Virus genome (UHGV): UHGV-0194891
Source: a virus
Strand: one strand, 5' to 3'
DNA: 35,993 bases
The notes under the pieces were generated by a model. It did not search any database and was not told where the DNA came from. It saw only the letters and a list, made by a program, of their open reading frames with translations. Of this stretch, positions 1 through 21,249 are shown one piece after another. The translations under genes were made by a program, and so were the position numbers. Position 1 is the first letter of the stretch. Every line of letters begins with the position of its first letter.

Positions 1-2
1 AC

Positions 3-104
3 GGCGGATCTGTGCGTGGGATTTACAACCATGCTCAGTATCTCGATAAGCGCAGAGAAATGATGCAGTGGTGGGCGGACTGGATTGATGAAAAGGTAGA
101 GTGA
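3..104 (+). CDS. Tyrosine integrase, C-terminal fragment (5' end lies outside the window)
   Basis: Frame-3 translation reads ...GGSVRGIYNHAQYLDKRREMMQWWADWIDEKVE and stops at TGA 102-104. The YNxAQYL...MMQWWAD tail matches my recollection of P4-family integrase C-termini; not searched. Confidence 0.45.
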   Translation, partial: GGSVRGIYNHAQYLDKRREMMQWWADWIDEKVE

Positions 105-352
105 GCGACCTTAAACTATCGAATAGCACAAAGTCTTGCAATACAGTGCAAAGATTTGTGTGTCTCAGTTTTGTCTAAGTGTTCTACTAAAAACATAGTA
201 AAATCGGTAACGGCTGGAAATCATTCAATACTCGCACTATCGAAAGTTCACCAGCCAGCCGTGGCTCGTGCTTGCATACGACGTGCTGCGGTTTCATTTA
301 TCTCCGACCGGAAACTTCTTATACAGAGTCGATACGCCAACATCATAGATGA

Positions 353-487
353 TCGCCACCTTCTGGCGAAGAACTCCTGATGCAATATAATTCGTGGCTG
401 GATTATCTGGACGCACTGGAACTGGTCGATACTTCCGGTGCGCCAGATATTGAATGGCCTACGCCTCCGGCAGTTCAGGCCAGATGA
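353..487 (+). pseudogene. Truncated tail-fibre assembly (tfa') remnant, convergent with the intact tfa
   Basis: Plus-strand frame open only from 353 to TGA 485-487; ATG at 380. It encodes ...EELLMQYNSWLDYLDALELVDTSGAPDIEWPTPPAVQAR, which matches the conserved Tfa C-terminus (VDTSxAPDIEWP). Only about 44 codons remain. Confidence 0.45.
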
Positions 488-1061
488 CATCCTGCGCGGT
501 GCTGGTATCTGTTGCCGTCACCGCGTCAATGTAATCCAGCACAGCGTTAAGCTGGGTTGTTTCTGCCTGCGTCAGTTTCCGTCCGGCCTGTAATTTCAGC
601 TGAATCAGACTGATGGAAGCCATTGCAGCATCAATCAGTGACTTGCGCTGTGCTTCTGCCGCGTCTACTGCGGCGCTATGCTGTGCCTCAGTATCGGTTA
701 CCCATTTCTCACCATCCCATTTATCGTATGGCGTTAACGGGGCGATAGTGGTTGTATTTTCAGGGTAATCACCCGGAGCTTTGATTTCTTTTGATTCTCC
801 TGTTTCTGTGCTAAAGACGATTTCACCACGATGGTCTGGCACATATTCCCATGAGTTAAAATCTGCAGAACGGCAGATTGCATACCCAGTTTTGTATGAG
901 CCAGGAGCATCTAAACAGGAACATGCCGGAATGCCGACACCCACAGCAAGATATTCATTTGAAGTGGAAATATATTCCCGTGTTTCACCATCATAGTTAT
1001 AGACGGTAATATTCCCTGCCTTCGTGGCAATAATCTCGCTATTTAATACAGCGTTATCCAT
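459..1061 (-). CDS. tfa: Tail fibre assembly protein (Tfa)
   Basis: 200-aa ORF whose C-terminus (...LNAVLDYIDAVTATDTSTAQDVIWPELPEA) is the typical Tfa chaperone motif; lies immediately downstream of the tail-fibre gene. Confidence 0.8.
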   Translation of the reverse strand: MDNAVLNSEIIATKAGNITVYNYDGETREYISTSNEYLAVGVGIPACSCLDAPGSYKTGYAICRSADFNSWEYVPDHRGEIVFSTETGESKEIKAPGDYPENTTTIAPLTPYDKWDGEKWVTDTEAQHSAAVDAAEAQRKSLIDAAMASISLIQLKLQAGRKLTQAETTQLNAVLDYIDAVTATDTSTAQDVIWPELPEA

Positions 1062-1828
1062 TATGCAGCCCTCACAATATAATTAAAGGCAATGTTACGT
1101 GGGCGGTTCTCATTTGCGGTTGGGACAACGGCTGAAGCATTAAAATTCGCATACAGGGAGCGTTGATACCCGGATGCTGATGCACCACTTAATGCGGGAG
1201 CTTTTGACCCCGAAGCCGAAAAGGCCCCTGACACGTATCCTAATAACCCTTGTGAATCGCCAATTGAACTGTAGCCAACCACCCCGGTAATGTTTCGGAT
1301 AGCATCTCCTTGTGCTGAAAGCAGAGTTCGCCCACTATCCACTCCCTTTCCACCATCCCAGCCACGAATAAACTCACCGCGTAAATCAGGCAATTTTAAC
1401 GTCGGGTAAGCCTTTGCCAGATTAGGGTAATCTTCAGCAGAAAAAGCCGCACCGTTGCATTTCAGCCAGCCTGTTGGCGGTGTGGCTGAAGGCCATGGAA
1501 CAGGCACGCCAACGGGTAATGCCGAACCTTCTCCCAAACCAAGGTTTGTGGTAATCGCTGTCGCCAGCTTTGCCACCAGTCCATCAACGTCACCATCATC
1601 GAGCGCGTCCAGTTCGGCGTTCGCGATAAACTGCCCCAGTACAGCCGCCATCGTCGACGGTTGGCGCAGCGCTTTACTGACCTGTGCGCTGGATGCTTTA
1701 CCCGAGGAGAATCCTTTCTTCAGTGCGGTTAGCGTCTCCCATTCCTCCTGCGAGGTAACATTTGCATTAGCATCTGTCGCAAACGCTTTAAAATCATTAG
1801 TTCCAGCCATTAAAGTAATCTCCCCCAT
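1061..1828 (-). CDS. Tail fibre protein with tail-collar-like receptor-binding C-terminus
   Basis: 255-aa ORF; the GWLKCNGAAFSAEDYPNLAKAYPTLKLPDLRGEFIRGWDGG segment resembles the phage tail-collar domain; followed by tfa. Confidence 0.7.
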   Translation of the reverse strand: MGEITLMAGTNDFKAFATDANANVTSQEEWETLTALKKGFSSGKASSAQVSKALRQPSTMAAVLGQFIANAELDALDDGDVDGLVAKLATAITTNLGLGEGSALPVGVPVPWPSATPPTGWLKCNGAAFSAEDYPNLAKAYPTLKLPDLRGEFIRGWDGGKGVDSGRTLLSAQGDAIRNITGVVGYSSIGDSQGLLGYVSGAFSASGSKAPALSGASASGYQRSLYANFNASAVVPTANENRPRNIAFNYIVRAA

Positions 1829-2490
1829 GCGCCGTCATCAAAACCGGCGATGTATTCGTTATCCATGTCAAATCCAAAGAATTTTGTTCCTTCGGACGGT
1901 GTTTCGACCGAGGGTGTTTCAACGCCGCCAGCCCATACACCAGCAGCTTTAACGGTGAGATAACCCTGTTTGATAGCGGCTATCAGTTCGAGTGACACAT
2001 CAGAAATATCAGTCTCGGGAAAAACCCAGACCGATATCGTCATGTCCTGGTTATCGACGATCTGCATCTTCAGTCCAGAGCCTGCGGTAGCAGCATCAAG
2101 GATGGGAGGCAGAGAGTCGTTCCGACCATCCCAGTTGTTGATAGCGATTTTCGCTTTCAGAATGATGCGGTACGTCTCATCACTCAGCGTCGTATAGCCA
2201 GAATCAGGATCATATGGCCCTTGCCAGATGCCCTGGTCATATCCGAGCCCGTCAGTGTCCCAGCTGAAATAAACGCCGCTAATTGGCTGGCTGACTATAC
2301 GACTACGCCCAATCCACAGGCCGAGGATATCGAGTTGCACGCCAACCGCCGTATCGATATCGAAGGCTGTTACAAGCCCTGACATAGTGCTGGACACATC
2401 AATCAGCGGGCGGGTGCTCAGATCTATATGGTCAAAAAAGAGTGGCTTGGTAGCATGGTAGTTAGTGATCAGTTCGGTGTATTTGCTCAT
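1810..2490 (-). CDS. Baseplate or tail protein (Mu gp48 / gpI-like position)
   Basis: ORF 1810-2526; the likely start is the ATG at 2490 (MSKYTELITNYH...), which overlaps the upstream stop as ATGA. Placement is between the J-like baseplate gene and the tail fibre. Confidence 0.5.
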   Translation of the reverse strand: MSKYTELITNYHATKPLFFDHIDLSTRPLIDVSSTMSGLVTAFDIDTAVGVQLDILGLWIGRSRIVSQPISGVYFSWDTDGLGYDQGIWQGPYDPDSGYTTLSDETYRIILKAKIAINNWDGRNDSLPPILDAATAGSGLKMQIVDNQDMTISVWVFPETDISDVSLELIAAIKQGYLTVKAAGVWAGGVETPSVETPSEGTKFFGFDMDNEYIAGFDDGAWGRLL

Positions 2491-3686
2491 GAGGTCACCG
2501 TGATAGTGACGTGACTCGCAACGCATGACGCAGATTCGTCATAAGCAATATCGATATTTCCGCTTGCGACTGAGTCAGAGGATTTGCCGATGAGCAGCTC
2601 CTGAATGTCGTAATAGCGAGCACTGCCTCCGCTTACCACGCCAAGGTTTGCAGGGGAATAAATACGACTCAGCAGAACGTCATCGCCAATTGCCAGGCCA
2701 TTTATATAATCGGCAACAGCCTGTTTTATCTGCTCGCCGATTTGAGATGTATACCCGGTAAAAACTTTCAGGGTAATGGCTACAAAAATTGGCACATCGG
2801 TAGAACGCGAAAAACTGATGACGTGAGGATTACCGTAAGTATCCGGCACGGTGACAGAAGTTGTACCGTAAGTTGCGGTTCCCTGCCCTTTATTCCCCCT
2901 GATGGTCTGGGCTATTTCAGTAACATCCCCTCCCTCAACGATGGCGGAAATTGAATGCGGTGGCAACCCGTTGCTGTCGGTTGCTCCAGTATCATTTTCG
3001 TAGAGCTTGTGACGTGTCACGCCCGCAACGTTGGCGATCGCACCGTCGACGCCTTCAAACGGTGTGATCGATGATAGCGCTACGCTTTGCCCCTGCCGAA
3101 TGCGCAGCTCTGCGTCGGTTTCTGCTGGTGAACCGACAGTAGCCGCAGCCGGGTTGGTTACCGACACCCAGCCGCGAGTCGGTGTGTTAATGGTGGTGAT
3201 AGTCCCGGCCATCGCCGCAACCGAACCGCTATTCGCACATGTGGCCGTCACCAGCACAGTACCATCAACGTCGATCGCTACACTCGCTGGAAAATTCCAG
3301 ATTATGCCGTTTTTATCCCGTGCAGAACCATTCGAGATAGTCGTGCCTGCCGTACCGGTTAACAGAAGGTCAGCTGTAGAGTTTGTCGCTACTTTTCGCG
3401 TGATCCCGTTAATTTTCACATTGCTGCTAAGCGCTGCGGCCTGCGCTGTCGTCGGTGAAAAAGAGTTGTAGATCCCGATAGCGGTGTTGTTAGCGTCATG
3501 CACGGCAAGAGCCACCAGCGCGACCATCTGCCCGTCTTTGCTGTCTGGTTCGAGGTAGGCATCACTACCGTAAATCTGCCTGAAATAGCTGGTCAGTGTA
3601 TCTAGGATTGTCTGGTAATCAGGCGCACTAATCCCCTGGGCGGTTACCGTTGCCGATAGCCCCAGCGTGTCGAGGTTCAAAGCCAT
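2487..3686 (-). CDS. Baseplate J-like protein
   Basis: 399-aa ORF in the baseplate gene order (V-like, W-like, J-like, I-like, fibre); size and position fit the gpJ / Mu gp47 class. Confidence 0.6.
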   Translation of the reverse strand: MALNLDTLGLSATVTAQGISAPDYQTILDTLTSYFRQIYGSDAYLEPDSKDGQMVALVALAVHDANNTAIGIYNSFSPTTAQAAALSSNVKINGITRKVATNSTADLLLTGTAGTTISNGSARDKNGIIWNFPASVAIDVDGTVLVTATCANSGSVAAMAGTITTINTPTRGWVSVTNPAAATVGSPAETDAELRIRQGQSVALSSITPFEGVDGAIANVAGVTRHKLYENDTGATDSNGLPPHSISAIVEGGDVTEIAQTIRGNKGQGTATYGTTSVTVPDTYGNPHVISFSRSTDVPIFVAITLKVFTGYTSQIGEQIKQAVADYINGLAIGDDVLLSRIYSPANLGVVSGGSARYYDIQELLIGKSSDSVASGNIDIAYDESASCVASHVTITVTS

Positions 3687-4040
3687 TTATGCCTCGCTTG
3701 TTACAGTCGTCTGGCCGTAGATTGTGTCAATGGAGGAAGTGAAGGTGACGCGACGGCTGGTGCCGTCATAATTGGTATCGAAGGAAAGAATCGACAGAAC
3801 GCCCGGCGTGTCCTGTATGCGTTCGCGTATAGCCAGGATGTAGACGTCTGATCGCTGTTTACCAAGTACTGACTGAACATACGGTGTGCCTTCCGTCAGA
3901 TCGAGAAACCACTGACCGCGCCACAGTTCGAAACGGGTTTTTACGGCCTGTGCGACACACTCCGGACTGTCGATAAGGAAGGTGTCGTCACCCTGCCCGA
4001 AAGTGTAATCGCCGTCAGCATCTTCGCGACGGTATCGCAT
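3687..4040 (-). CDS. Baseplate wedge protein (gpW / gp25-like)
   Basis: 117-aa ORF between the V-like and J-like genes, the usual gpW position. Confidence 0.5.
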   Translation of the reverse strand: MRYRREDADGDYTFGQGDDTFLIDSPECVAQAVKTRFELWRGQWFLDLTEGTPYVQSVLGKQRSDVYILAIRERIQDTPGVLSILSFDTNYDGTSRRVTFTSSIDTIYGQTTVTSEA

Positions 4041-4043
4041 AGA

Positions 4044-4682
4044 TTAACCTCCCAGCGGCTTAGTATTGCTTCCGCCGCTCTCAACGCCGCCATGGGTATG
4101 CTTATCCACGATAGAACCGTCCACCAGCTGCAAGCGACCGTCAGGCAGGATTTTGAGCCCGTTAAGGTTGAATCCGCCCGGTGCAGTGCCATTTATTGCC
4201 CCACTGGATGGGTTAAGGCTTAACTTTGTGCCGCCGTCATCGCTGCGCAGCTCTACCGAACTGGTACTGATACCGCTGATTTTCTGTGCTTGCGACTGCG
4301 GGCCAACGATGGCGAACGCATCAGATAAATCATGCTGGCGCGGGTCGACTGTCTCCTGAACGCCGCCGCTCTGCCACCAGAAATCGATGCAACGGTCGGC
4401 AAAGATCAGCAGGCACTCGTCGCCTTCTTTAACCGGAAAGGTCAACGTGCAACCGCCGCCGCGCGGGAAGATGACAGGCACATCCACCAGCGGTTTTAAT
4501 TCGGTGGAACCATCGCCAACAATACCGCGAAGCGCCACCTCTACTGTGCAGGTGACAGTGTCAGGATCGAACGACTGAATGATACCTGGCATCGCTACGC
4601 GCATCTGGGTAGACACCGAATCGGCAATGGCCTGCGCGGTCTGCTGCTCACCGCCGATCTGTGATTGAGTTGGAATTGGCAT
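4044..4682 (-). CDS. Baseplate assembly protein V-like (spike)
   Basis: ORF 4044-4769; the likely start is the ATG at 4682 (MPIPTQSQ...), placed after the terminator hairpin. The PGIIQSFDPDTVTCTVEV...PVIFPRGGG pattern resembles gpV / Mu gp45. Confidence 0.6.
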   Translation of the reverse strand: MPIPTQSQIGGEQQTAQAIADSVSTQMRVAMPGIIQSFDPDTVTCTVEVALRGIVGDGSTELKPLVDVPVIFPRGGGCTLTFPVKEGDECLLIFADRCIDFWWQSGGVQETVDPRQHDLSDAFAIVGPQSQAQKISGISTSSVELRSDDGGTKLSLNPSSGAINGTAPGGFNLNGLKILPDGRLQLVDGSIVDKHTHGGVESGGSNTKPLGG

Positions 4683-4693
4683 AAAAACCCCAT

Positions 4694-4725
4694 AAAAAAA
4701 ACCCGCTCGGCGGCGGGTTTGTGTT
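4694..4725. terminator. Bidirectional intrinsic terminator between the moron cassette and the V-like gene
   Basis: Plus strand reads AAAAAAAA-cccgctcggcggcggg-TTTGTGTT. On the minus strand the hairpin CCCGC/GCGGG is followed by a run of eight U. Confidence 0.6.
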
Positions 4726-4726
4726 A

Positions 4727-5272
4727 TTAAATTCGCTTCATCTTTTCTGGGTGGAAATTGGGACACCAACTACACCCTTTACTTACTGCCAATGCTTGTA
4801 TTTGGTCAGCCAAACTAAATGGCAATTTATCGGACACTCCGCCTTCCCACCCCCTAAGTAAACGGCAAGGTAAAAGGTAGTTGCCCGGGTAGTTAGAAAC
4901 GCATTCGCAATAAGACTGCTGATTGTTGGCTTTTAGTGATCGAGCATAACATCCAAGAGAAGATGATAACTCCTGAACATTTACAACCAACTCACCGTTA
5001 ATAAAGGCTTGAACGCCAGTAATTCCATACACCAGATAACATAGGTTTGCAGCTCTTGATAGTTGATCAGGCGTTTTACTAAAGGACGCTAAATGGAATT
5101 TTTTCCCTGCTATCTCACCAATTTTATTTACATCTGAAAGCTCAGCAATGGCTACAGCCATTGGATAATTTTTTGCCGTCGAATGAGGAAAAACAATGGT
5201 GATTACAAAGTTATCATCATTTAGAGATGCCAGATCCAAAGGGCCAATAGTTGACAGTCCCTTACCTGCCAC
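4727..5272 (-). CDS. Hypothetical Cys-rich protein, low-GC moron gene
   Basis: 181-aa ORF abutting the upstream ORF; visibly AT-rich compared with flanking tail genes; Cys cluster near the C-terminus (CECVSNYPGNYLLPC, CSWCPNF). No family recognised. Confidence 0.55.
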   Translation of the reverse strand: MAGKGLSTIGPLDLASLNDDNFVITIVFPHSTAKNYPMAVAIAELSDVNKIGEIAGKKFHLASFSKTPDQLSRAANLCYLVYGITGVQAFINGELVVNVQELSSSLGCYARSLKANNQQSYCECVSNYPGNYLLPCRLLRGWEGGVSDKLPFSLADQIQALAVSKGCSWCPNFHPEKMKRI

Positions 5273-5617
5273 TCATTTCACCTTTATACAATCATAGGTT
5301 GCATACTGACGTGGTGCATTCATGCTGGCTTGCAGCCACTGGGCATTGAGAATTATCTTGCCGTTTCGATTGATGTACTCAAGACCAACCCATCTTCCAG
5401 GCTGATCGGTAGCCATACGCCAATCCATCTTGATATTGTTATAATCGCCTTTGTTTTTCAGGAAGGTGATTTTTTGCATTTCTGGCTTTGCGCCATTGAT
5501 TCTGGCTAAGCCATCATCTGCCCAATGGATTTTAAAATCACCACATTGCTGATCCGCAAAAGCGGGTGCTGATATAAGCACCGCGAACACGGTAACAGTG
5601 CAAAGTAAATGTCTCAC
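5273..5617 (-). CDS. Small secreted (periplasmic) protein, low-GC moron gene
   Basis: 114-aa ORF with a signal peptide (MRHLLCTVTVFAVLISAPAFA, then DQQ) and two Cys residues in the mature part; AT-rich. Confidence 0.6.
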   Translation of the reverse strand: MRHLLCTVTVFAVLISAPAFADQQCGDFKIHWADDGLARINGAKPEMQKITFLKNKGDYNNIKMDWRMATDQPGRWVGLEYINRNGKIILNAQWLQASMNAPRQYATYDCIKVK

Positions 5618-5629
5618 GGCCCCACCTCA

Positions 5630-6694
5630 CTAATTCGTCGTCCCTTGCATTGCTTTCGGGCTATAAAGATCACGAGCGCCACGCGCAAAACACATCAAAT
5701 CCATGTACCACGCCTGACCTCTGGTGTCGCCAGTATAGTCGATAGCTTTGACGATATAAACGCCATCTGTCGCAATGCTGGCAGCCTGTGACGTTGTGCC
5801 GGTCAGTGCGCGGTTGCCGTTCTCTTCCGTTTCAGTGATACGCCCGGGCGACTGTGCGATTTCGCTATTGCCGAGCGCGGCGCGGTACACCGAAGCCTGA
5901 TCGAGCTGGATAAGACCATTAATGCGGATGTTTGGGTTTATCAGGCACCGCACGTTTACGCCGCCGCCCATTGTCTGTTGCGGCATACCGATCAGGCCAG
6001 TATTGGCATTTAACACAATGGCTTCGTGAATATATTTATCCTCCGGCACCATCTGGACCTGTCCATCCACCAGCTGCCATGTCGCTTTGCACTGCGCAGC
6101 AATATTATCCATCACGTTACGGGTGGATGAGTAAATCGCGCGGCCACGAGGAAACACAGTATCAGGAAAGTCGCCGGTAATGCCCTGCGTCACGCCGAAC
6201 GCGTTGAAATCCTGCATCGTCGCCCGGTGCAGATCCGCAACGGTATAGCCAGCGGCAAGCGTGGTGATGGTGGTCGCATAAAGGAACGCTTCGTGATCAC
6301 CAATAGCCTGAATCAACACCCAGGAATCGGTAATGTTGTCCTTCCCGGTGACGGTGAAGCGAATATCACCGTCAAAAATCAGGCCGTAGTTCTGACCGTT
6401 CACCTGCCCTATCTGGTCTGGTGAAATCTCCCGGGCTACACCAACCTGGCTCGCATCAACATCCGGCGCTATACCGTCATACCCGGCAATGATGCGAATT
6501 TTGGCAAACTCCTGCCCCAGTATCTTGTTCGTGGTATCGGTCGAAAGGTTGTAAATTTTCACGTTTGCCACGCGCGGCCAGCGTGTATCTGCCCACTCGA
6601 TCTGGAACGTGACTTTAAAGTCAGACAGGGAAATACCCTGCCCGTTCTGGTCCAACAGCTGCAACTCAAAATGGCGCATCCAGTTAAGAGACAT
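5630..6694 (-). CDS. Baseplate hub-like tail protein
   Basis: 354-aa ORF between the tape-measure-proximal genes and the baseplate V-like gene; assigned by position only. Confidence 0.45.
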   Translation of the reverse strand: MSLNWMRHFELQLLDQNGQGISLSDFKVTFQIEWADTRWPRVANVKIYNLSTDTTNKILGQEFAKIRIIAGYDGIAPDVDASQVGVAREISPDQIGQVNGQNYGLIFDGDIRFTVTGKDNITDSWVLIQAIGDHEAFLYATTITTLAAGYTVADLHRATMQDFNAFGVTQGITGDFPDTVFPRGRAIYSSTRNVMDNIAAQCKATWQLVDGQVQMVPEDKYIHEAIVLNANTGLIGMPQQTMGGGVNVRCLINPNIRINGLIQLDQASVYRAALGNSEIAQSPGRITETEENGNRALTGTTSQAASIATDGVYIVKAIDYTGDTRGQAWYMDLMCFARGARDLYSPKAMQGTTN

Positions 6695-6696
6695 TT

Positions 6697-7038
6697 CTAC
6701 TCCTGTACGAAAATGAGGTGGCTGTATGTGCCGAGGTTGGTTTTGGTTGGCTCGTCCGGTGCGCCCTTATCGGTCGCCACCACCAGCGCGCCATCAATGC
6801 CAAGCTGTGGATATTGTCGTAATAGGTTCACGCCGGTCAGGAGAGGTACGCCAGAAAGAAGCGCAGCACCGCCGCTATCCATCACGTCCATGATCCAGCC
6901 AGCCGCATCGCGCCAGATGATCCTGAGCGTATAGGTGGTATTGCCCAGCAAAACGCGGAACTGCTGATTGTCAGGAGAAAGCGGTATTTCGTTAAACTGC
7001 ATATCATCCCCCGAATGCTGATGTAACGCTTCCGCCAA
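6697..7038 (-). CDS. Hypothetical tail protein
   Basis: 113-aa ORF; the start may instead be the internal ATG near 7002. Tail-module position. Confidence 0.4.
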   Translation of the reverse strand: MAEALHQHSGDDMQFNEIPLSPDNQQFRVLLGNTTYTLRIIWRDAAGWIMDVMDSGGAALLSGVPLLTGVNLLRQYPQLGIDGALVVATDKGAPDEPTKTNLGTYSHLIFVQE

Positions 7039-7606: not shown

Positions 7607-9873
7607 TATCTCGGTCCTGCGGGGAGTTGCTGGGTTAACTGTGAATTCACGCCCTTTTGACGATCAACAGTCAAACGGGCAGCCTCGCGCGGATCGGAAA
7701 CGCCGTGGATGTTAATATTCGTTTCCTGCTGAATCACCGGGGCGCTGGTGGGCATGTTGCTCATTACTTTCGGAATGTAGTTACGCGTTTCCTGCGGCAT
7801 TAACCCCATGCCATAGCGCTTAACATTCCCGATCCCCCAGTTATATGATGCCAGTGCTTTGCTAAGGTCTCCACCGTTCTGCCGCAACAGCTGGCTGAGG
7901 TACTTAGCTGCGGCCTGAGCTGACTTTTGCGGGTCGAATACATCGTTTCCGCGAAGGCCCATGTCGCGCGCCGTGCCATCCATAAACTGAAACAGTCCTT
8001 TCGCGCCTGCGCCGGATATGGCGAACTGATTACCACCCGACTCGGTGATCGCCACGCTTTTCAACAGACCAGCAGGCAACTGATAAAGCGACTCCAGTTT
8101 ATTGAACATTGGCCCCATCCAGTCGAGCAAAACCTTGCCCTGCGCTGTGGCTTGTGGGCGTTTAACTGATTGCGCAAACTGGGAGGGGTCACCCGATATA
8201 TTTGGAGAGATTTCAGCAGCACCAGCCGGTGAGAAAAGTAAATTACCGATTTTGGCAATCCCGTCTGAGATCTTTTCAAGATAACCATTAGCAGCCTGCT
8301 GTCGGTTTTTTATTTCATCTCTTTCATGCGGGGCAATTTCATTACTACGAACATGCTGTTCCGCCCCGGGAATGTCAGGCTGAACATTATCGCCATAAAC
8401 GACGCCATTGCTTTGCGCCTGACGAATAATCTTACCTGGGCCACCATGCAGCCAATCCATCCATGCGGGCCATTCTCTTACCTCGCTAACATCTTTTCGC
8501 CCAAGGTCGGTTTTGATGCCAACCGTAGCAAGAGCATCACCAATGTTCCTTTTGGTATAGTCCAAAGATGATTTAGCACTGGCTTTTATGTTTTCACGAT
8601 CTGAAACCAGGTAACCAGCATACACTCCCCATAATTTAAGCCATGGAGGTATCGGAAGACCGGATATTTTTGCGAATGCTCCTAATACTTTTGTTACCCA
8701 TACCCCTGCGATGAAGGTAGCCAAAATTTCCAGCGAGCTCTGCCACCCACCGACAGAATCTTTTAGCCCCAGCAGCTTATCGCGCAGCCAGAGAATTGCC
8801 TTTTTCGCCTTTTCTATTGCTGGCTTCCACTTGCTCCAGTCAATCAGGCTTTTGCCCCCCTCTTTCCACGTCTGGTAATCGTCATAGAGTAATCCGATCG
8901 CCAGAATCAGCGTGGTGATCAGGCCAATAGGGGATTTCAGGAACGCAGAATTAAGCAGACGCCATGCGACCAGAAGAGCACCGAATATTTTCAGCAGATT
9001 TTTACTGCCATCATCCAGACGCTTCCACCAGTCAATGACAGAGCCAGCGCCCTGTATCAGCCGCCACGCCATTCTCGTGAATGCGTTTGCAAGCCAGATC
9101 ACGCCCTTAACAACTTTTGTCAGCGTCTCTTCAATCTTCGGGAAATTGTCGAGGATGCGCCGCCGCAGGCTGTCCAGCGAACCAGCCAGACCACCAGCGA
9201 GATTTGAGCCGATCTTGTCCCGCATAATGCCGAACAGCGACGTAAGCCCGCGCATGGAGGTCATGAATTTATTGGACTGAACAGCCGCTTTATCAGCGTT
9301 GAAACCCGTCTTTTGCAGCATCGACTGGTAATCGGCGGTAAAGCCATTCATGCCGCGCCGCATCGCCATCAGCGTGTTTTCATCGATGCCGAGCATCTGC
9401 GCGTATTGCTTCGCGCGGTAATACGGCATGTTGTTGAGCTTTTGCCCAACGCCAGTAAAGATGGCAGCAGTATCACGCATCTTTCCGCTGGCATCGCGGG
9501 TCTGGACACCAAGACGGTTCAGGAACCCTTCCGCCCCCGGATTGCTACGCATAAAGCCAGCCAGCCCTTCGAGGGAGGACATGGCCGACTCAGCGCTGGC
9601 ACCGGTTTGCGATGCGGCATAGCCCAGCGCTTTGATGCCCTGGACGCTGGCCCCCGTCCGCTGGGATGCCCAGTAAATTTTATCCAGACCATTCGCGATC
9701 TGGGTGGTAAATCCGACAATGCTCAGCGCTGCGCCTTCCACCACCGCGCCGACCTTCAGAACGTTCGCGGTAACGCCTTTCAGCACGGCTTCAAACTTAT
9801 TAGCGCCAGCCTGATCGATATCGAATCCCAGCGAAACAAGGAAGTCTTTAATCGTATCTGCGTTACCGCTCAT
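7606..9873 (-). CDS. Tail tape measure protein with C-terminal lytic transglycosylase (SLT) domain
   Basis: 755-aa ORF with long helical and hydrophobic stretches. The C-terminal part carries ...ITESGGNQFAISGAGAKGLFQFMDGTARDMGL...ASYNWGIGN, the SLT catalytic signature (ES...GLFQ...Y.G). Confidence 0.8.
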   Translation of the reverse strand: MSGNADTIKDFLVSLGFDIDQAGANKFEAVLKGVTANVLKVGAVVEGAALSIVGFTTQIANGLDKIYWASQRTGASVQGIKALGYAASQTGASAESAMSSLEGLAGFMRSNPGAEGFLNRLGVQTRDASGKMRDTAAIFTGVGQKLNNMPYYRAKQYAQMLGIDENTLMAMRRGMNGFTADYQSMLQKTGFNADKAAVQSNKFMTSMRGLTSLFGIMRDKIGSNLAGGLAGSLDSLRRRILDNFPKIEETLTKVVKGVIWLANAFTRMAWRLIQGAGSVIDWWKRLDDGSKNLLKIFGALLVAWRLLNSAFLKSPIGLITTLILAIGLLYDDYQTWKEGGKSLIDWSKWKPAIEKAKKAILWLRDKLLGLKDSVGGWQSSLEILATFIAGVWVTKVLGAFAKISGLPIPPWLKLWGVYAGYLVSDRENIKASAKSSLDYTKRNIGDALATVGIKTDLGRKDVSEVREWPAWMDWLHGGPGKIIRQAQSNGVVYGDNVQPDIPGAEQHVRSNEIAPHERDEIKNRQQAANGYLEKISDGIAKIGNLLFSPAGAAEISPNISGDPSQFAQSVKRPQATAQGKVLLDWMGPMFNKLESLYQLPAGLLKSVAITESGGNQFAISGAGAKGLFQFMDGTARDMGLRGNDVFDPQKSAQAAAKYLSQLLRQNGGDLSKALASYNWGIGNVKRYGMGLMPQETRNYIPKVMSNMPTSAPVIQQETNINIHGVSDPREAARLTVDRQKGVNSQLTQQLPAGPR

Positions 9874-10105
9874 TGGCCGCTCTCCATTTATCTACCCGGG
9901 CGTCGTTATCCTCGCGCATGTCGAGGTAGTCATTGAGAAGCGCGATGCGGCAGAGGTCTACCGCACCGCTGTTAAGGTCTTTCTGGTCAATATGGAAGGC
10001 AAGCGCCGGACGAAGAATAAAATCTTCACCGCCCGGCAGGCTGTTGAAGGTTATTCCGCTGGCGGGGTAGGCGTCTCGCTGGTAGGGAGTCCTTGCAAAA
10101 AATTT
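9863..10105 (-). CDS. -1 frameshift extension of the tail assembly chaperone (GT-like product)
   Basis: Slippery AAATTTT at 10099-10105 (minus strand) in zero-frame context GGA AAT TTT. The -1 frame is then open for 78 codons (FARTPYQRDAYPASG...KWRAANER) to TAA 9863-9865, filling the gap before the tape measure. Confidence 0.55.
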   Translation of the reverse strand, partial: KFFARTPYQRDAYPASGITFNSLPGGEDFILRPALAFHIDQKDLNSGAVDLCRIALLNDYLDMREDNDARVDKWRAANER

Positions 10106-10476
10106 CCCAGCGAGTCGGCGACCACCCGCGCCACCAGTTGCAGCATGGTCAGCAGGTCGATATCGTCAAACGCCATTTCGCCATGCTGGCAGACCGGCAC
10201 CCAGCCTTTCATGTGCTCGCGTGAAACAACGGAAAGGCAGGGGAACAGGATAGCGTCCACGTCGCCATCGCTCAGATCGGACACAGCATTGGCAATCTTT
10301 GGCAGGATGGTAGCCATCGCGCCTTCGGTGTCTTTGCTGCTGATCTTCTCCTGAACGCTCCGAAAGTCAGAAACCATCCCGGCCAGCACCGGCAACAGCT
10401 TGCGGGACACCTTCAGCTGTTCGAAAACGCTGAGCTTTGCGGTGCGATATTTCACGCCTTTAATTTCGAATTCCAT
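10051..10476 (-). CDS. Tail assembly chaperone (G-like)
   Basis: 141-aa ORF between the tube gene and the tape measure; has a slippery heptamer near its 3' end (next feature). Confidence 0.6.
   Translation of the reverse strand: MEFEIKGVKYRTAKLSVFEQLKVSRKLLPVLAGMVSDFRSVQEKISSKDTEGAMATILPKIANAVSDLSDGDVDAILFPCLSVVSREHMKGWVPVCQHGEMAFDDIDLLTMLQLVARVVADSLGNFLQGLPTSETPTPPAE
10099..10105 (-). other. Programmed -1 ribosomal frameshift slippery heptamer (AAATTTT)
   Basis: Canonical X XXY YYZ heptamer in the zero frame (GGA AAT TTT) about 15 codons before the chaperone stop; the -1 frame stays open to the tape-measure start. Confidence 0.55.
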
Positions 10477-10479
10477 GCG

Positions 10480-10920
10480 TTAAAACTCCCCGAGCAGCTG
10501 GTCAATCTTGCCGCAGTCGAACACCCAGGAAACAGTACCGCCCTCTTTGGCGTTATTGAAATCAGGCTGTTTCTGGAATGCACACGAACGCGCAGTAGAA
10601 ATATCACCCGATGCCGTGTTGCGAATGACGATCACGTTATTGCCCCAGGTGGCAGAGGACTGGCTTTGCGCGTTATACGCCAGAGACAGCTTTTTATTCA
10701 CCGGGGAGGTTTTGAGTAGCGTCACCGTAATGGTGCCTGACTTATCGGCGTGCAGGCTGTGCATCACCTCGCCATCGGCACCGATGGTCATGGTGTTTTT
10801 GTTGCCGCCCATGGTCTGGGTGATACCTTCCTCAGAGTTCGCAGAACCCTGACCAAGATCGATAACGCCGGTCGGCCCGGTGAGCGACGCGGTTACATCA
10901 AGAAAAGAATAAGTTGCCAT
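10480..10920 (-). CDS. Tail tube protein
   Basis: 146-aa ORF between the sheath-like gene and the chaperone; size and position fit a myovirus tube protein. Confidence 0.55.
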   Translation of the reverse strand: MATYSFLDVTASLTGPTGVIDLGQGSANSEEGITQTMGGNKNTMTIGADGEVMHSLHADKSGTITVTLLKTSPVNKKLSLAYNAQSQSSATWGNNVIVIRNTASGDISTARSCAFQKQPDFNNAKEGGTVSWVFDCGKIDQLLGEF

Positions 10921-10930
10921 TTATCGCTCC

Positions 10931-12091
10931 TTAGCGAACCACGTTGATCTGCACATCGGCATAATGAACTGCGCCAGCCAGCTTACAGGCCACCTGGATT
11001 AACGGTGCTTTGCGCGCTTCGCGGTCGGCCTGCGCCTGTTCGGACAGAGGTTGCGCATACACGTAATAACCTTTGGTCAGCGTATCGCCGGAATTCAGCT
11101 GTCCGATAGGGCCACCATTCCACACGCCAGCCGCTACCAGACCGTTCGTGACGGACTGATCCATGGACTGTTCAACGTTGGAAAGCAGACGGGTCACACC
11201 GGCGTCAGTCTGCGGAATTTTGGTGGTGCTGGTGTAAAGCAGGTTATAGAGATTGGTCTGAACGTAGTTCTGCAACCAGTCGAGCCCGTGGCGCTCGTCG
11301 AAGAAGTCACCGTTCGCCATGACACCCTGTTGCAGGATCGCCGTGTCGTTGGCGTAGTACACGAACACGTTCGCATTCTTCGCATCCACAGCCGCCGCCT
11401 GGCCTACCGTCAGCGTTTCGTAGGTTACGCTCGGTTCCTGTTTGAATTTCAGGGTAATGGTGGTATTGCTGCCGTTGAAATTGACAGTAAACGCGCGACC
11501 GAAAGCTGAAACCGCTGCATAAGGGCTGCTGGTGGAATATTGAATAAAGGTACGGGCATACTTGCCAGCCTTTAATTTCGACGCAACATCGGTCGTCGAA
11601 GTCGTGCTGATAATCTCGGCGTCGGCAGAGGTTACCCCGAAAATGCGGCTAAGACTGGACGCTTCGATGAGTTTAGCAACCTCAATCACGTCGTCAGCAT
11701 CAAGCACATCACCGCCATCAGCAACTTCATCAGCGACAACCAGCCCATACCAGTTGGTATATTGCAGGCAGGCATTAACAGCTTGCACAATGGTTTCCAC
11801 GCTTCCACCTTCGGAAGAAGTCAGCGTCTTCGCCCAGCGGCCAACATAAACCTGCGTCGGCTTCGGCGACTGGCTGAAGAAAACCTGCGCCGCTTCATAT
11901 TCCGGGCTGTCGACACCGAAGTCTTCGCCAATGTCCTCAACGGAAGCATATAGGCGAGTACGTTCTGTCACCGGAATGACAGTGGAAGAGCCAAGGATTA
12001 GCAATGCGCCGAAGTTACGACCAGTAGCCGCTTTCGGCGAGATGATCACATCAACGTTTACAACGTTGGATACAGGTAAGCCCTGCGTCAT
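10931..12091 (-). CDS. Tail sheath-like protein
   Basis: 386-aa ORF directly upstream of the tube gene; assigned by position and size, no motif recognised. Confidence 0.5.
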
Positions 12092-12094
12092 AGT

Positions 12095-12703
12095 TTATTC
12101 TCCAAAAAAGGTGACTGGCACTTCCACCAGCGATTTGATGCCATACTCGCGGACAACCTTCCGGCGCAGTCGCACCGTCATGTCGTAACGGCGAACCCAT
12201 TGCTGGTTGATAAGTTCGGGGAAAGGGGTCAGAGCGGTATAGTCGCCAAGGGATAAACCAAGCGCGTTCAGCTCAGCATTGTTTTGCGGGACAGATATAC
12301 CATCGCGAAAACGGGACGCATAAGACATACCAGCCGGACCATAGAACGACGCCATGCACTCGAACGTTTCATGCCTCCAGAGCTGAGCGCCCTCTTCAGT
12401 CTGCCCGGTGAATGCAGGGTTGTTATCAATGAGCAACCCGGTAACGCCAAACGCGCACCAGTTCGTTTCAACGGGTGGCAGTGGCGGCTGATTTTTCTGC
12501 CAGCGCGGACGAACCATTCCAGACGGCAAGCCGGAAACGTTACGCATCCACTGGCTTAACAGCCTGTCGAGCGCTTCGTCATAATCCGGATCGCCACTGG
12601 TTGGTATCAGCCAGCCGCGCTCTGTGCTGGTGTTATTGCTCAACCGGAATTCCCCCATCAAACGGCAGCAACTCACAATGCGCCTGAACGAATCCGGCAC
12701 CAT
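12095..12703 (-). CDS. Hypothetical virion protein (head-tail joining or tail completion region)
   Basis: 202-aa ORF in a compact, overlapping gene series between capsid and sheath. Confidence 0.45.
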   Translation of the reverse strand: MVPDSFRRIVSCCRLMGEFRLSNNTSTERGWLIPTSGDPDYDEALDRLLSQWMRNVSGLPSGMVRPRWQKNQPPLPPVETNWCAFGVTGLLIDNNPAFTGQTEEGAQLWRHETFECMASFYGPAGMSYASRFRDGISVPQNNAELNALGLSLGDYTALTPFPELINQQWVRRYDMTVRLRRKVVREYGIKSLVEVPVTFFGE

Positions 12704-13022
12704 ACGCTGTATACGGGTCGACGAAAGTCACACGATAATCACGGCCCTGATACGTCACGATATCGGCATCACGGCCAGTCTGTCCCTGCGTCAGTCGCTC
12801 AGTCGTCACAATCAGAATTGCACCACTGATTACCTGCCCGGCCTGCATACGACGGTTTTCCAGAGAGCGATCAACAGTTACGTCTCCGGCAAACTGCGTT
12901 TTAACTTCACTGTCGCTGCCGATCCCGTCATCGTCCACCGTTTGCACGCGACGCGTTACCCACAGGTTGAAGTCGCAAAAATCGGGGTCAAAAAGTACGT
13001 CCGTCACATCAAGATTCGGCAT
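12633..13022 (-). CDS. Hypothetical virion protein
   Basis: 129-aa ORF in the head-tail connector region. Confidence 0.4.
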   Translation of the reverse strand: MPNLDVTDVLFDPDFCDFNLWVTRRVQTVDDDGIGSDSEVKTQFAGDVTVDRSLENRRMQAGQVISGAILIVTTERLTQGQTGRDADIVTYQGRDYRVTFVDPYTAYGAGFVQAHCELLPFDGGIPVEQ

Positions 13023-13563
13023 CTTTATCCCTCACAACGTGGGTAATGGCTCTGCGATATTGCCCGGTGTCAATTAATGGTTTCACCAGATCGGTTCCGG
13101 GGAGCTCGCCAGCAACACGCCGGGCAAGTTCCAGTGTTGCCCCCTTGCGCCCCCGACGAGCCCGGGCTTCAACAGTGCTGTCAGCAAGCGGCGTAAAGCC
13201 GGTAATAGTCATGTAACGCCTGACGCCATTAGCGGCCAGCGTTCCGGCGCGGTTGAGCGATCTTTCCGCACCCGCCGCATTACCATCAAGCGCAGCCTGC
13301 GCCGCTGCTTTAAGCTGCGGCACTGTCTGTTCCTCTACCGATTTAACGCCGGGGATCAGGTGCGGGCGTGGGGGGATGTTTTGCGCTGGTGAGCCGTATT
13401 CGTTGACGTAACCGATCCCGGCATTACCAAACGGAACATCCTCACGCTCGCTGTCTTCTTCCGGGATGCCCACCAGCACTTCTTTTTTACCGATGGATTT
13501 GAGCGCATCCAGAATGGCCTGAGCGTTATCCACCCTCGTTGTCACACCGCTTTTGAAACTCAT
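13009..13563 (-). CDS. Hypothetical virion protein
   Basis: 184-aa ORF in the head-tail connector region. Confidence 0.45.
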
Positions 13564-14003
13564 AGCTGGCGACCGCCCGCACCAAACATCGTGATCAGCT
13601 GATAAAATTCAGCGCCATATCGGGTGTTATTCCAGAAGCCTGCGTCAGGGTTTAGCGTCGCGCTGGTGTCATAGCTGACGCTTACCTTGTCAACGGACTT
13701 AGAGGACTGAACACCATTGGTTGAACCGCCCGGGCCGCCAACCAGCATCGCCCGGCTATCTGCCGCCCAAAGCGTCATGTAGTGCGCAACGAACAAATCG
13801 GCAAAATACGGAAACAACTTTTTGCCGGTGACCTTTTCGCTTAGCAGCACATCGGCCAGATTCAGACGAAACTCGATTTGCGCTTCGGGATATTTGGCAG
13901 GGTCAGCAAACTGCGGGAAGTCGCGGCGAAAATCACTTACTGTTGGCAGGCTTTGATTCTTTGGCATCTTTTGCCCCATTACCGCCAGTCTGGGCGGCAG
14001 CAA
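13560..14003 (-). CDS. Hypothetical virion protein
   Basis: 147-aa ORF; the start is probably an internal ATG (about 13967-13979) given the overlap with the upstream ORF. Confidence 0.4.
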
Positions 14004-14322
14004 TCTGCGCTTGCAGGCTGTCGTTCTGCTCTTGCAGCTTGAGCAGCGCTTCTTTCAGATCGGCAATCAGCTGATCTTTATCGACAATCTGCTTATCTTT
14101 GTCGGCAATCTGCGCTTGCAGGCTGTCGATAATGGGTTGCAGATCATCGGTGTCGCTAATCACGCTTTCGGAAAGCTCGGAGTGCGCCTGGGTGAACCAG
14201 TGCGACGCGACCTCTTCCGGTACGTTATGCCGTCCCCGGCCAAACTCCCTTTTTGACTGATCGCCGAGCGTCAGCGTAAACGGGGTGTGAACATGGATGG
14301 TAACCAGCTTTTCTTTCGCCAT
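13933..14322 (-). CDS. Hypothetical coiled-coil protein downstream of the capsid gene
   Basis: 129-aa ORF with repeated LQAQIA / [16 protein letters not shown] segments, mirrored by direct DNA repeats of about 24 bp (14008-14031 and 14105-14128). Confidence 0.4.
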
Positions 14323-14363
14323 TTTCAGTTCCCTTCTGGCCCCTTTCGGGGCCGTTCTGGTTA

Positions 14364-15305
14364 TCAGATACCGTCCACGTAGGACAGGGTTTCTTTGTAC
14401 ACTGGCTCAACCGCACCGAGCTTGCCGTAGTAGGTCGCAATCTGATACATACCGCGATACTGGACAGGAACGCTCTGCAACGGCACCAGCGGATAGCGCA
14501 CGTATTTCTTGTCGTTGGTGTAGGCGATCATACGGTCTTTACCGCCAACCCCACGCCCTTTCAGCCATTTGACCGCTTTGATTTCAAGCGGAACGCCGTT
14601 CTGGTGGAAAGCGATAGTGTTCACAGCCAGATAGGTCAGCAGTGACTGGTTACCCGCTTCGGAAACCTTACGGCTCGCCAGCAGTGAATACTGCTCTGGC
14701 GGAATGCGCAGATCAGAAGGCACGATGGAATAACCGGATGCTGCCCAGGCATTAGACAGAATGCTGTTCACGCTATCGAGGATCTCGTCGTTGGTTGAGT
14801 TCGCCCAGGTCTTCGGCGCGTTGTTCAGCGTCACACCGACGAGGTTTGCCAGACCTTTCAGGCCGAGTGCGTCATCACCGATGTAAACCTGCTCGTCGTT
14901 GTCCATCTGCCATTTGAGCTGCATCCCGTCGTACTTCTGGGTATCAATCGGGCGGCCTACCTGCTGAGCAGCTGCCAGCTCTACAACGGTCCAGCCCAGT
15001 TCCATACCCCAGAGGTTCAGTGGATTGCCGTCTTTGCTGATATCCACGTTCACGCCAGCAATAGCGGTGGAGTCTTTGCCTACCCAGTTTTTACCATTCG
15101 GATTTGCGCCAGTACCAGCAGCGCCAAAACTGGTGTTAGTCCAGCTGGAAATGTCATCTGCGATAGAAACGTCTTCACGCAGCTGAATATCGCGGGTCCA
15201 GGTGTAACCCACCAGCGGCAGGTTCAGCGTCTGGTCGAGTCGCTCCAGCTCCCCGATGAGAAAGGCACCAGAGCTATCAACGGTTGCCTGATCAAAAGTA
15301 ATCAT
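14364..15305 (-). CDS. Major capsid protein (putative)
   Basis: 313-aa ORF placed after the scaffold-like and decoration-like genes and before the connector genes. Confidence 0.6.
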   Translation of the reverse strand: MITFDQATVDSSGAFLIGELERLDQTLNLPLVGYTWTRDIQLREDVSIADDISSWTNTSFGAAGTGANPNGKNWVGKDSTAIAGVNVDISKDGNPLNLWGMELGWTVVELAAAQQVGRPIDTQKYDGMQLKWQMDNDEQVYIGDDALGLKGLANLVGVTLNNAPKTWANSTNDEILDSVNSILSNAWAASGYSIVPSDLRIPPEQYSLLASRKVSEAGNQSLLTYLAVNTIAFHQNGVPLEIKAVKWLKGRGVGGKDRMIAYTNDKKYVRYPLVPLQSVPVQYRGMYQIATYYGKLGAVEPVYKETLSYVDGI

Positions 15306-15316
15306 TCGTCTGTTCC

Positions 15317-15820
15317 TTAAATCTTCCAGGAGATTTCTGCATTGCCGTTAGCGTCACCGGCCCCTGTGAATTCGGCGTTGGTCAGCGCCACGTTTTTGCC
15401 ACTGACGGACGTGGACATGAAGCCGCCCAGCGGCACTTTGATGGATTCATCAGTGGAGACGACAACGTATACCGGGTCGCCTTTTTTGATGGTGCTGGCA
15501 TCAAAATCAGAACCGAGATTAACGGTCATGTAGCCACGCTTCATGGCGTCACCCGGGAAGTTCTTATCCGTCCCCACCTGGCGAACCATGTCTGGCTGCG
15601 ATGTGGTCGGATACGGACGAACGTAGATCCCCTTCACCTTGTCGGCGGTGTCACCGTCCGCCAGCGGCACGAAAAAGCCGTCAGCGTCATATTTGCCAGC
15701 CAGACCATAGGCAGCGAAGGCGTTAGCGGATTTAAGGATCACCGGTTCGACGGTTAAGTCCTGCGGGCGAGAGATAGCCCCGGCAATGCCAACAGGCATC
15801 CGGTACAAATATGCAGTCAT
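15317..15820 (-). CDS. Head protein (decoration or scaffold-associated)
   Basis: 167-aa ORF immediately upstream of the capsid gene. Confidence 0.45.
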   Translation of the reverse strand: MTAYLYRMPVGIAGAISRPQDLTVEPVILKSANAFAAYGLAGKYDADGFFVPLADGDTADKVKGIYVRPYPTTSQPDMVRQVGTDKNFPGDAMKRGYMTVNLGSDFDASTIKKGDPVYVVVSTDESIKVPLGGFMSTSVSGKNVALTNAEFTGAGDANGNAEISWKI

Positions 15821-15824
15821 TGGA

Positions 15825-17045
15825 TTATCCTTTGCGGTTAGACCAGAAGTCGGCGTTTTGTTTGTTCAGGGAAGCGATGCTGGTCATGCCCATATTTGGA
15901 CGTTGTGCATCGCCCGTGGTGCTGCGGGTGTTTCGCCCTTTGGCAATCTCTGACACGGCGTTAAACGCCATATCTACCGATTGCTTGGGCAATTTGCGGA
16001 TATCCGCATCACCGACAACCTGGCGAACCAGTGTTTTGTCAGCGGCAGCCAGCACATCACGTTTGAACGCGGTCGGTTTCACCTTACGGCTCAGATCGAT
16101 ACCCGGGACGATAACTTCGGCACGATAAGCAGCGTCACCAGTAATCGTGGTTTCTTCTTCATCGTCCTCGCCGTCACCGGTCGGATTATCGTCAGGCTTA
16201 TTGTCGTTATCGCCCGTCGCAGTTCCTTCGAGCTTAGCCAGCAGGGCTTTGAGCAAGGTTTTGATATCGTCCTCGCCGTCGCCGGTTGGCTCTCCGCCCA
16301 TTTCCGGCTTTTTGTCCGGCAATGGTTGCTGCGGTGAAAGGTTAATGTTGAGGTTAACGCCGCTCGGCAGATCCCCTTCGTCACCCGTTACCGCCGCTGG
16401 CGCAGAGTCCAGCAGTTCGTTCATGGTGTCAGCGTCACCCGTTTTGATGGCCGTGCGCATGCGGGTCCACCAGCTTTTCTTTTGATTTGCCATTGTGTCT
16501 CTGTCTCCAATTGCACAACGATTTCCGGCTCTGCCTTTGGGGACAAGAGCCACATGGTTTCCGGTAATATCGACCTGCTCGGCTTTACCTGGCTCGGTCT
16601 GCTCGTACTCCGCGTCATAGCCGCACGACACTTCACGCAGGCCATCTTCGATAAGCTGAATGGCGTTTTCGTCTTTGACGATAAGGTCAGCCAGCATCAA
16701 ATCAGACTGATCACCAGTCCCGCGCCGAACGTTCTGAAGATGCCCGACCGCAAGCTCTTTCCAGTTCTCGGGGTTGACCAGCCGCACATTTCCGTTTTCA
16801 TCTTCAGGATGCAGGATCGTGATGCTCATCCCTTCGAATGAGGCGAGCGTGGCCGGATGGAATACCTGCTCAGGAGAGCGCGTTACGACTATTTCACCGA
16901 ACTTATCGGGTTTGAGGTTTGGCAGATCGGCAGCGCCGTAAAGCTGCTTACCCGTTCGACCTATCGGCACGTCTTTGCACAGCAGCGAGCCGTCAGCCAG
17001 CTGATAACGGGTTTCCCCCAGCCGGGTATTGAAAAAATATTTCAT
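15825..17045 (-). CDS. Head scaffold or prohead protease-like protein
   Basis: 406-aa ORF with an acidic, Gly/Asp/Glu-rich central region ([22 protein letters not shown]) typical of scaffolding proteins. Confidence 0.5.
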
Positions 17046-17059
17046 GGTTTACCTGCGAT

Positions 17060-20779: not shown

Positions 20780-21249
20780 CCCATCATCTTGCGGTAAATC
20801 TCTGCGGCCTGATCTGCGGTGAGGTTGGTCGTCTCGGTCTTGATCGGGCCGCCATCCTTGCCAGTGCTCTCAACCTTCAGCTTATTGGTGTATGCATCGC
20901 CAACCTCTTTCGCGGCCTGCTCAATGAGCTGCGCCGTCAGGGAGAAGTTTTTCATCCCCTCGGTTTTGGTTGCCATACGGTCAAGCACGCGGAGGCGATA
21001 GGATTTGTTCGCGATCGGAATGTCGCTGGTTTCGGTCAGGAACCGTTTGCGCGTCGCGTGGAACATCTCGATCCACTTTTTGGCTAAACCTTTGCTACTA
21101 GCCTTGGTTGGGTCGTGTGCTTCGGCTTGCTGGCGAGAAATAGTTAACCCAAACTCTTTCTTGACGGATTCGACAACTTGAGAAGGAGTATCAAAGCACG
21201 CAAGCGATTGAATGATGAAGGCTTTTACTTCCGGTTTTAAAGCAGCCAT
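20776..21249 (-). CDS. Terminase small subunit (putative)
   Basis: 157-aa ORF whose stop overlaps the large-subunit start. Confidence 0.5.

Follow-up and report, generated by a model that had tools for sequence, protein, structure and literature searches.

The region at positions 1–1828 of the window (the whole stretch of DNA that was analysed, 35,993 bp) is in all probability the vestige of a Pin-type invertible switch, lying beside the 3' end of intS and locked by a single deletion of about 1,265 bp. The e14 pinE, Mu G/gin, P1 C/cin and Salmonella hin systems belong to one family of invertases and switches. The intact switch of an E. coli prophage located at argW (NZ_CM192843; hereafter, L001) served as the reference for the deletion. 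In L001 the genes follow the order tRNA-Arg, intS, pinE, Sv', tfa', tfaE and fibre gene, and perfect 20-nt inverted repeats (CTTCTCCCAAACCAACGTTT) are found at 4910–4929 and 6817–6836.

Remnants of pin and tfa' at a deletion junction

The remnant of a Pin-type serine DNA invertase gene occupies positions 294–382 on the minus strand, with the stop codon at 294–296 and the last 28 codons of the gene at 297–380. Its product, SGVLRQKVAIIYDVGVSTLYKKFPVGDK, corresponds to helices 2–3 of the helix-turn-helix and is matched by the Pfam HTH_7 profile (PF02796; E=1e-5, 26 bits versus a cutoff of 23.8). The identity to residues 151–184 of L001 PinE is 85% (29/34, E=2e-18). Of the Hin-type DNA-binding domain, helix 1 and the minor-groove arm are presumably absent from this 28-residue piece. 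No match to the resolvase catalytic domain (PF00239) was found at the remnant, whereas intact relatives carry both PF00239 and HTH_7. The preliminary description had held that no serine invertase is present; this is correct for a functional gene, but the last 28 residues of Pin are still encoded at 294–382 on the minus strand.

The adjoining stretch on the plus strand, 383–487, is the remnant of an alternative tail-fibre assembly gene, tfa', of which the last 34 codons and the stop codon survive. The peptide aligns with profile positions 100–131 of 131 in Caudo_TAP (PF02413, E=3.1e-9), and 33 of 36 residues are identical to residues 112–147 of the 147-amino acid Tfa' of L001 (E=3e-22). A Tfa C-terminus had been described here at 353–487, with failure to align to Tfa proteins named as the result that would speak against it. 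The alignments uphold the identity of the peptide, but the fragment starts at 383 rather than 353, the bases from 353 to 382 being pin antisense, and the number of surviving codons is 34 and not about 44. The 3' ends of tfa and tfa' overlap head-on, as had been noted, by 29 nt (459–487), and the same 29-nt overlap is present in the intact L001 genes (5309–5752 versus 5724–6326). The junction also creates an in-frame ATG at 380–382.

A three-way alignment of the window with both parental regions of L001 places the deletion junction at 381–383. T381 is specific to pin, G382 is common to both parents and constitutes a 1-nt microhomology, and C383 is specific to tfa'. To the left, window 1–391 corresponds to L001 4001–4390 without rearrangement and with 93.6% identity, from the 3' end of intS across the spacer to that of pinE; to the right, window 382–1102 aligns to L001 5647–6367, which comprises the tfa' 3' end and tfaE. 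As judged by where the flanking words fall in L001, 1,265 bp (4383–5647) have no counterpart in the window. According to the L001 annotation, this interval contains pinE codons 1–156 and tfa' codons 1–113, together with the left crossover site (4910–4929) and the C-terminus of the alternative fibre (4878–5288). The window accordingly displays the pattern of a vestigial segment, with collinear homology on both sides of a single deletion and remnants of both the invertase and the silent cassette. The matches for pin, tfa' and the integrase lie far beyond chance, as seen from their E-values and from the recurrence of the same architecture in five independent public assemblies. By eye, the flanks of the junction do not resemble a crossover site, and a deletion mediated by the invertase is not favoured. 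Beyond the 1-nt microhomology, nothing about the mechanism of the deletion is evident.

The fibre gene, tfa and an orphan crossover site

The intact tfa gene that had been described at 459–1061 on the minus strand is borne out: it encodes 200 amino acids, matches PF02413 with E=2.9e-32 and is 92–95% identical at the DNA level to the tfaE-type genes in three loci (L001–L003). It is preceded by a tail-fibre gene of 255 codons (1061–1828, minus strand; PF07484 Collar, E=1.9e-15), composed of a constant 5' part at about 1555–1828 and a variable 3' part, bearing the tail-collar domain, at 1061 to about 1526. Both genes are intact and translationally coupled through a TAATG at 1059–1063.

An orphan crossover site of the Pin/Gin/Hin type, CCTTCTCCCAAACCAAGGTTTGTGGTAA, lies at 1527–1554, on the boundary between the constant and variable parts of the fibre gene. 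In a search of the whole 35,993-bp window allowing up to three mismatches, a single match was returned (1530–1547), against 0.03 expected by chance. The first 16 bases of the site are identical (16/16) to the inverted repeat of the e14 P segment, CCTTCTCCCAAACCAA, as quoted in PMC12529663.

A functional segment requires a pair of sites of about 26 bp, and no second, inverted site is present in the window. Nor does the window hold a second Sv' cassette, the stretch that would match L001 4878–5288 having been deleted. Where a functional segment has two tfa genes, tfa is intact here and tfa' is reduced to 34 codons.

Relationship to intact switches

The phage most closely related to the window is Omnitron, a Citrobacter phage (CP115737), which shows approximately 95% DNA identity to window 8807–23950. 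Omnitron also matches window 1528–4040, through the constant part of the fibre gene, and the collinearity stops at 1528, so that the boundary between constant and variable parts coincides with the crossover site. Beyond this point, window 1328–1542 and 382–1146 match the silent (Sv') cassette of Omnitron on the opposite strand, and the 200-amino acid tfa of the window is the same gene as the tfa in the silent position of Omnitron. The Omnitron switch comprises two inverted crossover sites, both Sv/tfa cassettes and an invertase of 189 amino acids with Resolvase and HTH_7 domains. Two sites, both cassettes and a full invertase are thus kept in Omnitron and L001 but not in the window, and the Omnitron segment lies in the orientation opposite to that frozen in the window. 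By this alignment, the window appears to be an Omnitron-like switch in the other orientation that was then crippled by the deletion. The preliminary description had suggested a remnant of a G/C/P-type invertible switch and proposed alignment to intact related prophages as a check. That comparison finds the full switch at the same place in L001 and Omnitron and, together with the 3' piece of pin and the orphan site, substantiates the suggestion.

The same order is found in the P segment of e14, namely the fibre constant part, a site, Sv, tfa, the convergent tfa', Sv', a second site and, outside it, the invertase. The likeness extends to the 16 shared bases of the crossover site and to the tfa of the window, which is of the tfaE type. 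In contrast to the P segment, the window lacks the invertase catalytic domain, Sv' and two thirds of tfa', and has one site left.

A model for the loss of inversion

The ancestor would have carried a minus-strand fibre gene interrupted by a crossover site. The invertible segment, about 1.9 kb in length, would have contained the convergent cassettes Sv-tfa and tfa'-Sv' and a second, inverted site at its end, with pin just outside this second site and its 3' end directed towards intS. One illegitimate deletion event, spanning about 1,265 bp and involving 1 nt of microhomology, could then have fused pin codon 157 to tfa' codon 114. It would have removed the second crossover site and the alternative fibre tip along with the catalytic domain and promoter of the invertase, and would have cut away two thirds of tfa'. 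Left at the locus are 28 codons of pin, 34 codons of tfa' and one orphan site in the fibre gene.

The Fis recombinational enhancer of Gin, Hin and Cin is located within the 5' portion of the invertase gene, and a Pin-family switch needs an invertase, two inverted sites and this enhancer. The whole 5' part of pin is missing from the window, which leaves no canonical location for an enhancer, and the Fis enhancer was presumably lost along with it. With the catalytic domain, one site and the 5' part of pin gone, intramolecular inversion should be impossible, even with an invertase from another prophage, and the inversion activity appears to have been lost. The locked switch would allow expression of the collar-domain fibre tip and its cognate tfa alone. 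The rest of the structural region is about 95% identical to Omnitron, and the phage is likely to be viable with one fixed fibre specificity.

The integrase end and the adjoining spacer

Positions 1–104 on the plus strand are the 3' end of an IntS-type (KplE1/P4-family) tyrosine integrase gene, cut by the edge of the window, of which 33 codons remain ahead of a TGA stop at 102–104. The encoded residues, GGSVRGIYNHAQYLDKRREMMQWWADWIDEKVE (window 3–101), are identical at 32 of 33 positions to residues 353–385 of L001 IntS (BLASTP, E=1e-22). The 33-residue piece has no Pfam match on its own, and it is in the full-length L001 IntS that the catalytic (PF00589), central (PF22022) and P4-type arm-binding (PF13356) domains are seen. 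The DNA of the integrase end is collinear with L001 and with a second E. coli prophage, L004. A tyrosine integrase ending at 104 had been correctly recognised, and the 32/33 match to IntS answers the concern that the fragment might belong to another protein class.

The same integrase gene lies directly downstream of tRNA-Arg (argW) in L001, in L004 (L009 in its full prophage form) and in a viral contig, L012, where the upstream gene is tRNA-Arg(CCT). In L009, a 16-bp core, ATGGTGTCCCCTGCAG, is located at the 3' end of the tRNA-Arg gene, upstream of intS, and a second copy is found about 45 kb away, between dsdC and torI. In the KplE1 module, attL is placed 5' of intS, over its promoter (PMC2951348), and intS and torI mark opposite ends of the prophage (PMC2951348, PMC3509656). 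The integrase C-terminus of the window, with 32/33 identities to the annotated IntS, resembles that of the KplE1 (CPS-53)/HK620/Sf6 module of IntS, TorI and argW, and the KplE1-like relatives that share the same int-spacer-pin' DNA are at argW with TorI at the other end. Compared to that module, the window holds only 33 integrase codons, and att, the promoter and torI fall outside it; the argW specificity and the att position are therefore taken from relatives. From three of these, we infer that the att of this phage is presumably at the argW tRNA, on the 5' side of intS and beyond the window, and the core CTGCAGGGGACACCAT would sit at tRNA-Arg(CCT), 5' of intS. At its other end the window enters the early-left operon, with a cI-like repressor gene at 31410–32114 and an N-like antiterminator gene at 34322–34705, and stops short of att.

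Between the stop codons of intS and pin lies a non-coding spacer (105–293) that is collinear with L001 4105–4293 and with L004. The gap at 105–352, which had been left as unassigned, can thus be assigned from the collinearity of 1–391 with the intS end, spacer and pinE end of L001 (93.6%), and 105–293 is the ordinary conserved intS-pin spacer and not an attP. Within it, a sub-block (125/198–293) constitutes a conserved 'pin-downstream' block that is present also in HK97, HK106 and other prophages. Homology begins at 125 with HK106 and the prophage L006, and at 198 with HK97 and the prophage L005, and the right part of the spacer is found in many settings following pin or a remnant of it.

Two palindromes, at 126–161 and 257–293, may conceivably act as terminators for the convergent intS and pin transcripts, although they fold only weakly and no better than expected, the plus strand giving z-scores of -0.6 and -0.8 and the minus strand +0.4 and -2.2. 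A terminator scan returned nothing at either palindrome, its 8-nt loop limit being one that would miss the 11-nt loop at 257–293, and the whole window gave no Rfam match for structured RNA at gathering thresholds. A candidate small gene at 187–297 on the minus strand (a 36-amino acid ORF) was rejected; it has no Pfam match, and 1-nt indels break its frame in relatives. The start of this ORF overlaps the stop codon of pin as ATGA, and in L001 it is annotated as 'capsid protein'.

Distribution of the scar

A 171-nt probe crossing the junction was compared with 5,426 complete E. coli genomes, of which 2,113 match one or other side and three span the junction. These are strain EcE.CRE.COL (L004/L009), where the scar lies beside argW-intS; strain R1 (L005), where it lies beside pphA; and strain Br_190_kylling (L006), where it lies beside ybhB, in the lambda attachment region. 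The identical junction is carried by two IMG/VR viral contigs, L011 and L012, the latter with tRNA-Arg(CCT), int and an e14/Mu-like baseplate in place of that of the window. Scans of the GTDB representative genomes for the junction word were negative, and the INPHARED set contains no phage record across the junction. RefSeq/PGAP already treats both remnants in L004–L006 as incomplete genes (pseudogenes), labelled 'helix-turn-helix domain-containing protein' for pin and 'tail fiber assembly protein' for tfa'. In this sense the locus is an ordinary relic of a well-known type of switch, whose remnants public genomes already record as pseudogenes.

L004 and L012 have intS beside argW, the identical junction and a single orphan crossover site. 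In L005 and L006, part of tfa has also been lost, and the 15-nt core of the crossover site has no exact match there. Compared to the window, the fibre, baseplate and integration modules differ among the scarred prophages (L004–L006, L011 and L012). The scar block, approximately 340 bp in length, comprises the pin-downstream spacer, pin', tfa' and the 3' end of tfa. The six scarred sequences fall into two haplogroups, one formed by the window, L004 and L012 and the other by L005, L006 and L011. On the tfa' side, all six share alleles that are unlike L001 (C427, T433, G437 and G442), and on the pin side some polymorphisms of the scarred copies are shared with the intact L001. The two haplogroups and the pin variants shared with L001 may have come about through later recombination or, with lower probability, through recurrent deletion.

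A comparable state is seen in HK97 and HK106, which have one orphan site in stf and a tfa' 3' fragment convergent with tfa, and which retain the stop codon of pin and its downstream block while the invertase is absent. Their lesion, between sib and tfa, appears to be a separate and more eroded one, with less of pin and tfa' kept. Unlike the window, HK97 and HK106 have a lambda-type integration module, in which attP and sib separate int from the remnant.

Alternative explanations

In the preliminary description it was suggested that, as in lambda or HK97, the gap at 105–352 might hold attP (or attL/attR), with the window in circular or vegetative order. Such a layout does exist beside this module, as in HK97 and HK106 the int 3' end is followed by the attP core, sib, the same pin-downstream block and tfa. 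However, the att core and sib of these phages sit to the left of the homologue of 198–293, in sequence that has no counterpart in the window, and the integrase of the window is of the IntS rather than the lambda type. Moreover, window 1–391 is collinear with integrated prophages that bear their att core 5' of intS at argW. The window holds no copy of the argW core or of the lambda core and no tRNA gene, and positions 1–500 contain no arm-type repeat array, only two 2-copy repeats of 8–9 nt. These negatives cover the tRNA, att-core and arm-type repeat checks that had been proposed for 105–352. The adjacency of int and the fibre genes, equally present in integrated prophages, is normal for the integrated state of this type of phage and is consequently uninformative on circular order. 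An attP in the gap is thus largely refuted already, and we assign it almost no probability. The other option that had been raised, att located 5' of a P4-like integrase and a gap that is a deletion scar, stands with respect to the integrase and att, but the scar is confined to 381–383 and 105–293 is normal spacer. A different question is whether a deletion hotspot produced the identical pin'/tfa' junction more than once, for example through aberrant action of an invertase on pseudo-sites. The junction occurs in three integration contexts (argW-intS, pphA and ybhB/lambda att) with different tail modules, the scarred copies form two haplogroups with some pin-side variants in common with intact L001, and HK97 and HK106 have a second, different lesion in the same module. 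Recurrence is nonetheless very unlikely, as the junction is identical to the base in six sequences despite a microhomology of only 1 nt and, by eye, does not resemble the 26-bp crossover site. C427, T433, G437 and G442 are common to all six and differ from L001, the scar is rare (3/5,426 E. coli genomes; absent from the GTDB species representatives), and the new neighbours are readily accounted for by lambdoid mosaicism. The pattern points instead to one old deletion, from which a small block would have been carried into different backbones by lambdoid mosaic recombination.

The remnants themselves are most simply taken to be non-functional, and the final 29 nt of tfa' double as tfa coding sequence, which accounts for their preservation. 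It is highly improbable that they are retained for a function, of which three kinds can be envisaged. The tfa'/tfa 3' ends, with an inverted repeat at 397–414 and 523–540, could serve as a 3' stabiliser or terminator of the late operon, and this 18-nt repeat is present in every locus examined; it is, however, expected where two convergent genes encode the same conserved peptide, and 459–487 is constrained as tfa coding sequence. A peptide of 35–40 amino acids could be made from the fusion ORFs (380–487, plus strand, or 294–416, minus strand), for which the junction supplies the in-frame ATG at 380–382, but no Shine-Dalgarno motif can be read upstream of these ORFs, promoter-like sites are no commoner than in shuffled sequence, and the 28-residue Pin piece would be without helix 1 and the minor-groove arm. 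Finally, the orphan site could be acted on in trans by the invertases of other prophages. PinQ, PinR and PinE all invert the e14 segment, an instance of action across prophages (PMC12529663), but a single site is insufficient for intramolecular inversion. That the scar block persisted through the split into two haplogroups would favour retention, whereas the further decay of tfa beside the scar in L005 and L006 argues against it. A related proposal, that the block of about 340 bp is a successful mosaic joint rather than debris and that its orphan site is possibly live for Pin-family invertases supplied in trans, we consider unlikely. If it were true, the block would have moved among at least three integration modules and several tail types, fibre locking and loss of pin might be advantageous, and the orphan site might allow fibre-tip exchange or chromosomal rearrangement between prophages.

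Implications for host range and annotation

With the switch locked by deletion, as we propose, the host range of this phage would be fixed and not switchable. The stretch at 294–487 should then be labelled as two pseudogene fragments, and att should be sought upstream of intS and not between int and the fibre genes. The locus would provide a base-resolved example of the decay of an invertible host-range switch, in which a small scar travels by mosaic recombination.

Fusion reading frames at the deletion junction

Fusion of the remnants of pin, a Pin-type serine invertase gene, and tfa', an alternative tail-fibre assembly gene, generated an in-frame ATG at the deletion junction (380-382) ahead of 34 tfa' codons, so that an open reading frame spans 380-487 on the plus strand. 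The opposite strand carries a 40-aa frame with a GTG start (294-416, minus strand), in which 12 antisense residues are joined to the Pin HTH remnant. No ribosome-binding motif was seen upstream of either frame, and promoter-like sites occur at a frequency not above that of shuffled sequence.

Further changes within the switch module

A palindrome with an 11-nt loop lies directly 3' of the pin stop codon, at 257-293 in the window and at 4259-4286 in L001, an E. coli prophage with an intact invertible tail-fibre switch. The window and the other sequences with the identical scar junction (L004-L006, L011 and L012) have this loop in one orientation and L001 has it in the other, a small hairpin-loop inversion in which the loop is flipped between its short inverted arms.

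In HK97 and HK106 this switch module bears a second lesion, which is either an independent event or a further stage of decay. Both retain a strongly eroded pin/tfa' remnant between sib and tfa, and the stf gene of each contains one orphan Pin-type crossover site. The intervals concerned are 2501-2728 and 3813-3827 in the HK97 locus (L007), and 2501-2801 and 3874-3888 in the HK106 locus (L008).

Apparent mosaicism and the immunity region

At the DNA level, two stretches of the baseplate and tail region (4040-5270 and 7734-8807) match Citrobacter phage Omnitron barely or not at all, while their flanks are 87-95% identical to it; these stretches look like local mosaic replacements. The immunity region with its cI-like repressor (31049-32166) is 98% identical to that of L009, the scar-bearing prophage of E. 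coli EcE.CRE.COL, although the majority of structural genes are not common to the two. Upstream of the N-like antiterminator gene is a long untranslated leader, GC-rich in part (33730-34320), for which Rfam returned no match; over 33730-34016 this leader shares 90% identity with the sequence that precedes N in L009.

Two overlapping plus-strand genes (32314-33722), encoding proteins of 159 aa (DUF6932) and 310 aa, are flanked by the repressor (31410-32114) and the antiterminator (34322-34705). The pair occupies the place of rexAB in lambda, and matches components of the PADLOC candidate defence system PDC-M63 (component A, E=1.8e-41; component B, E=6.9e-45).
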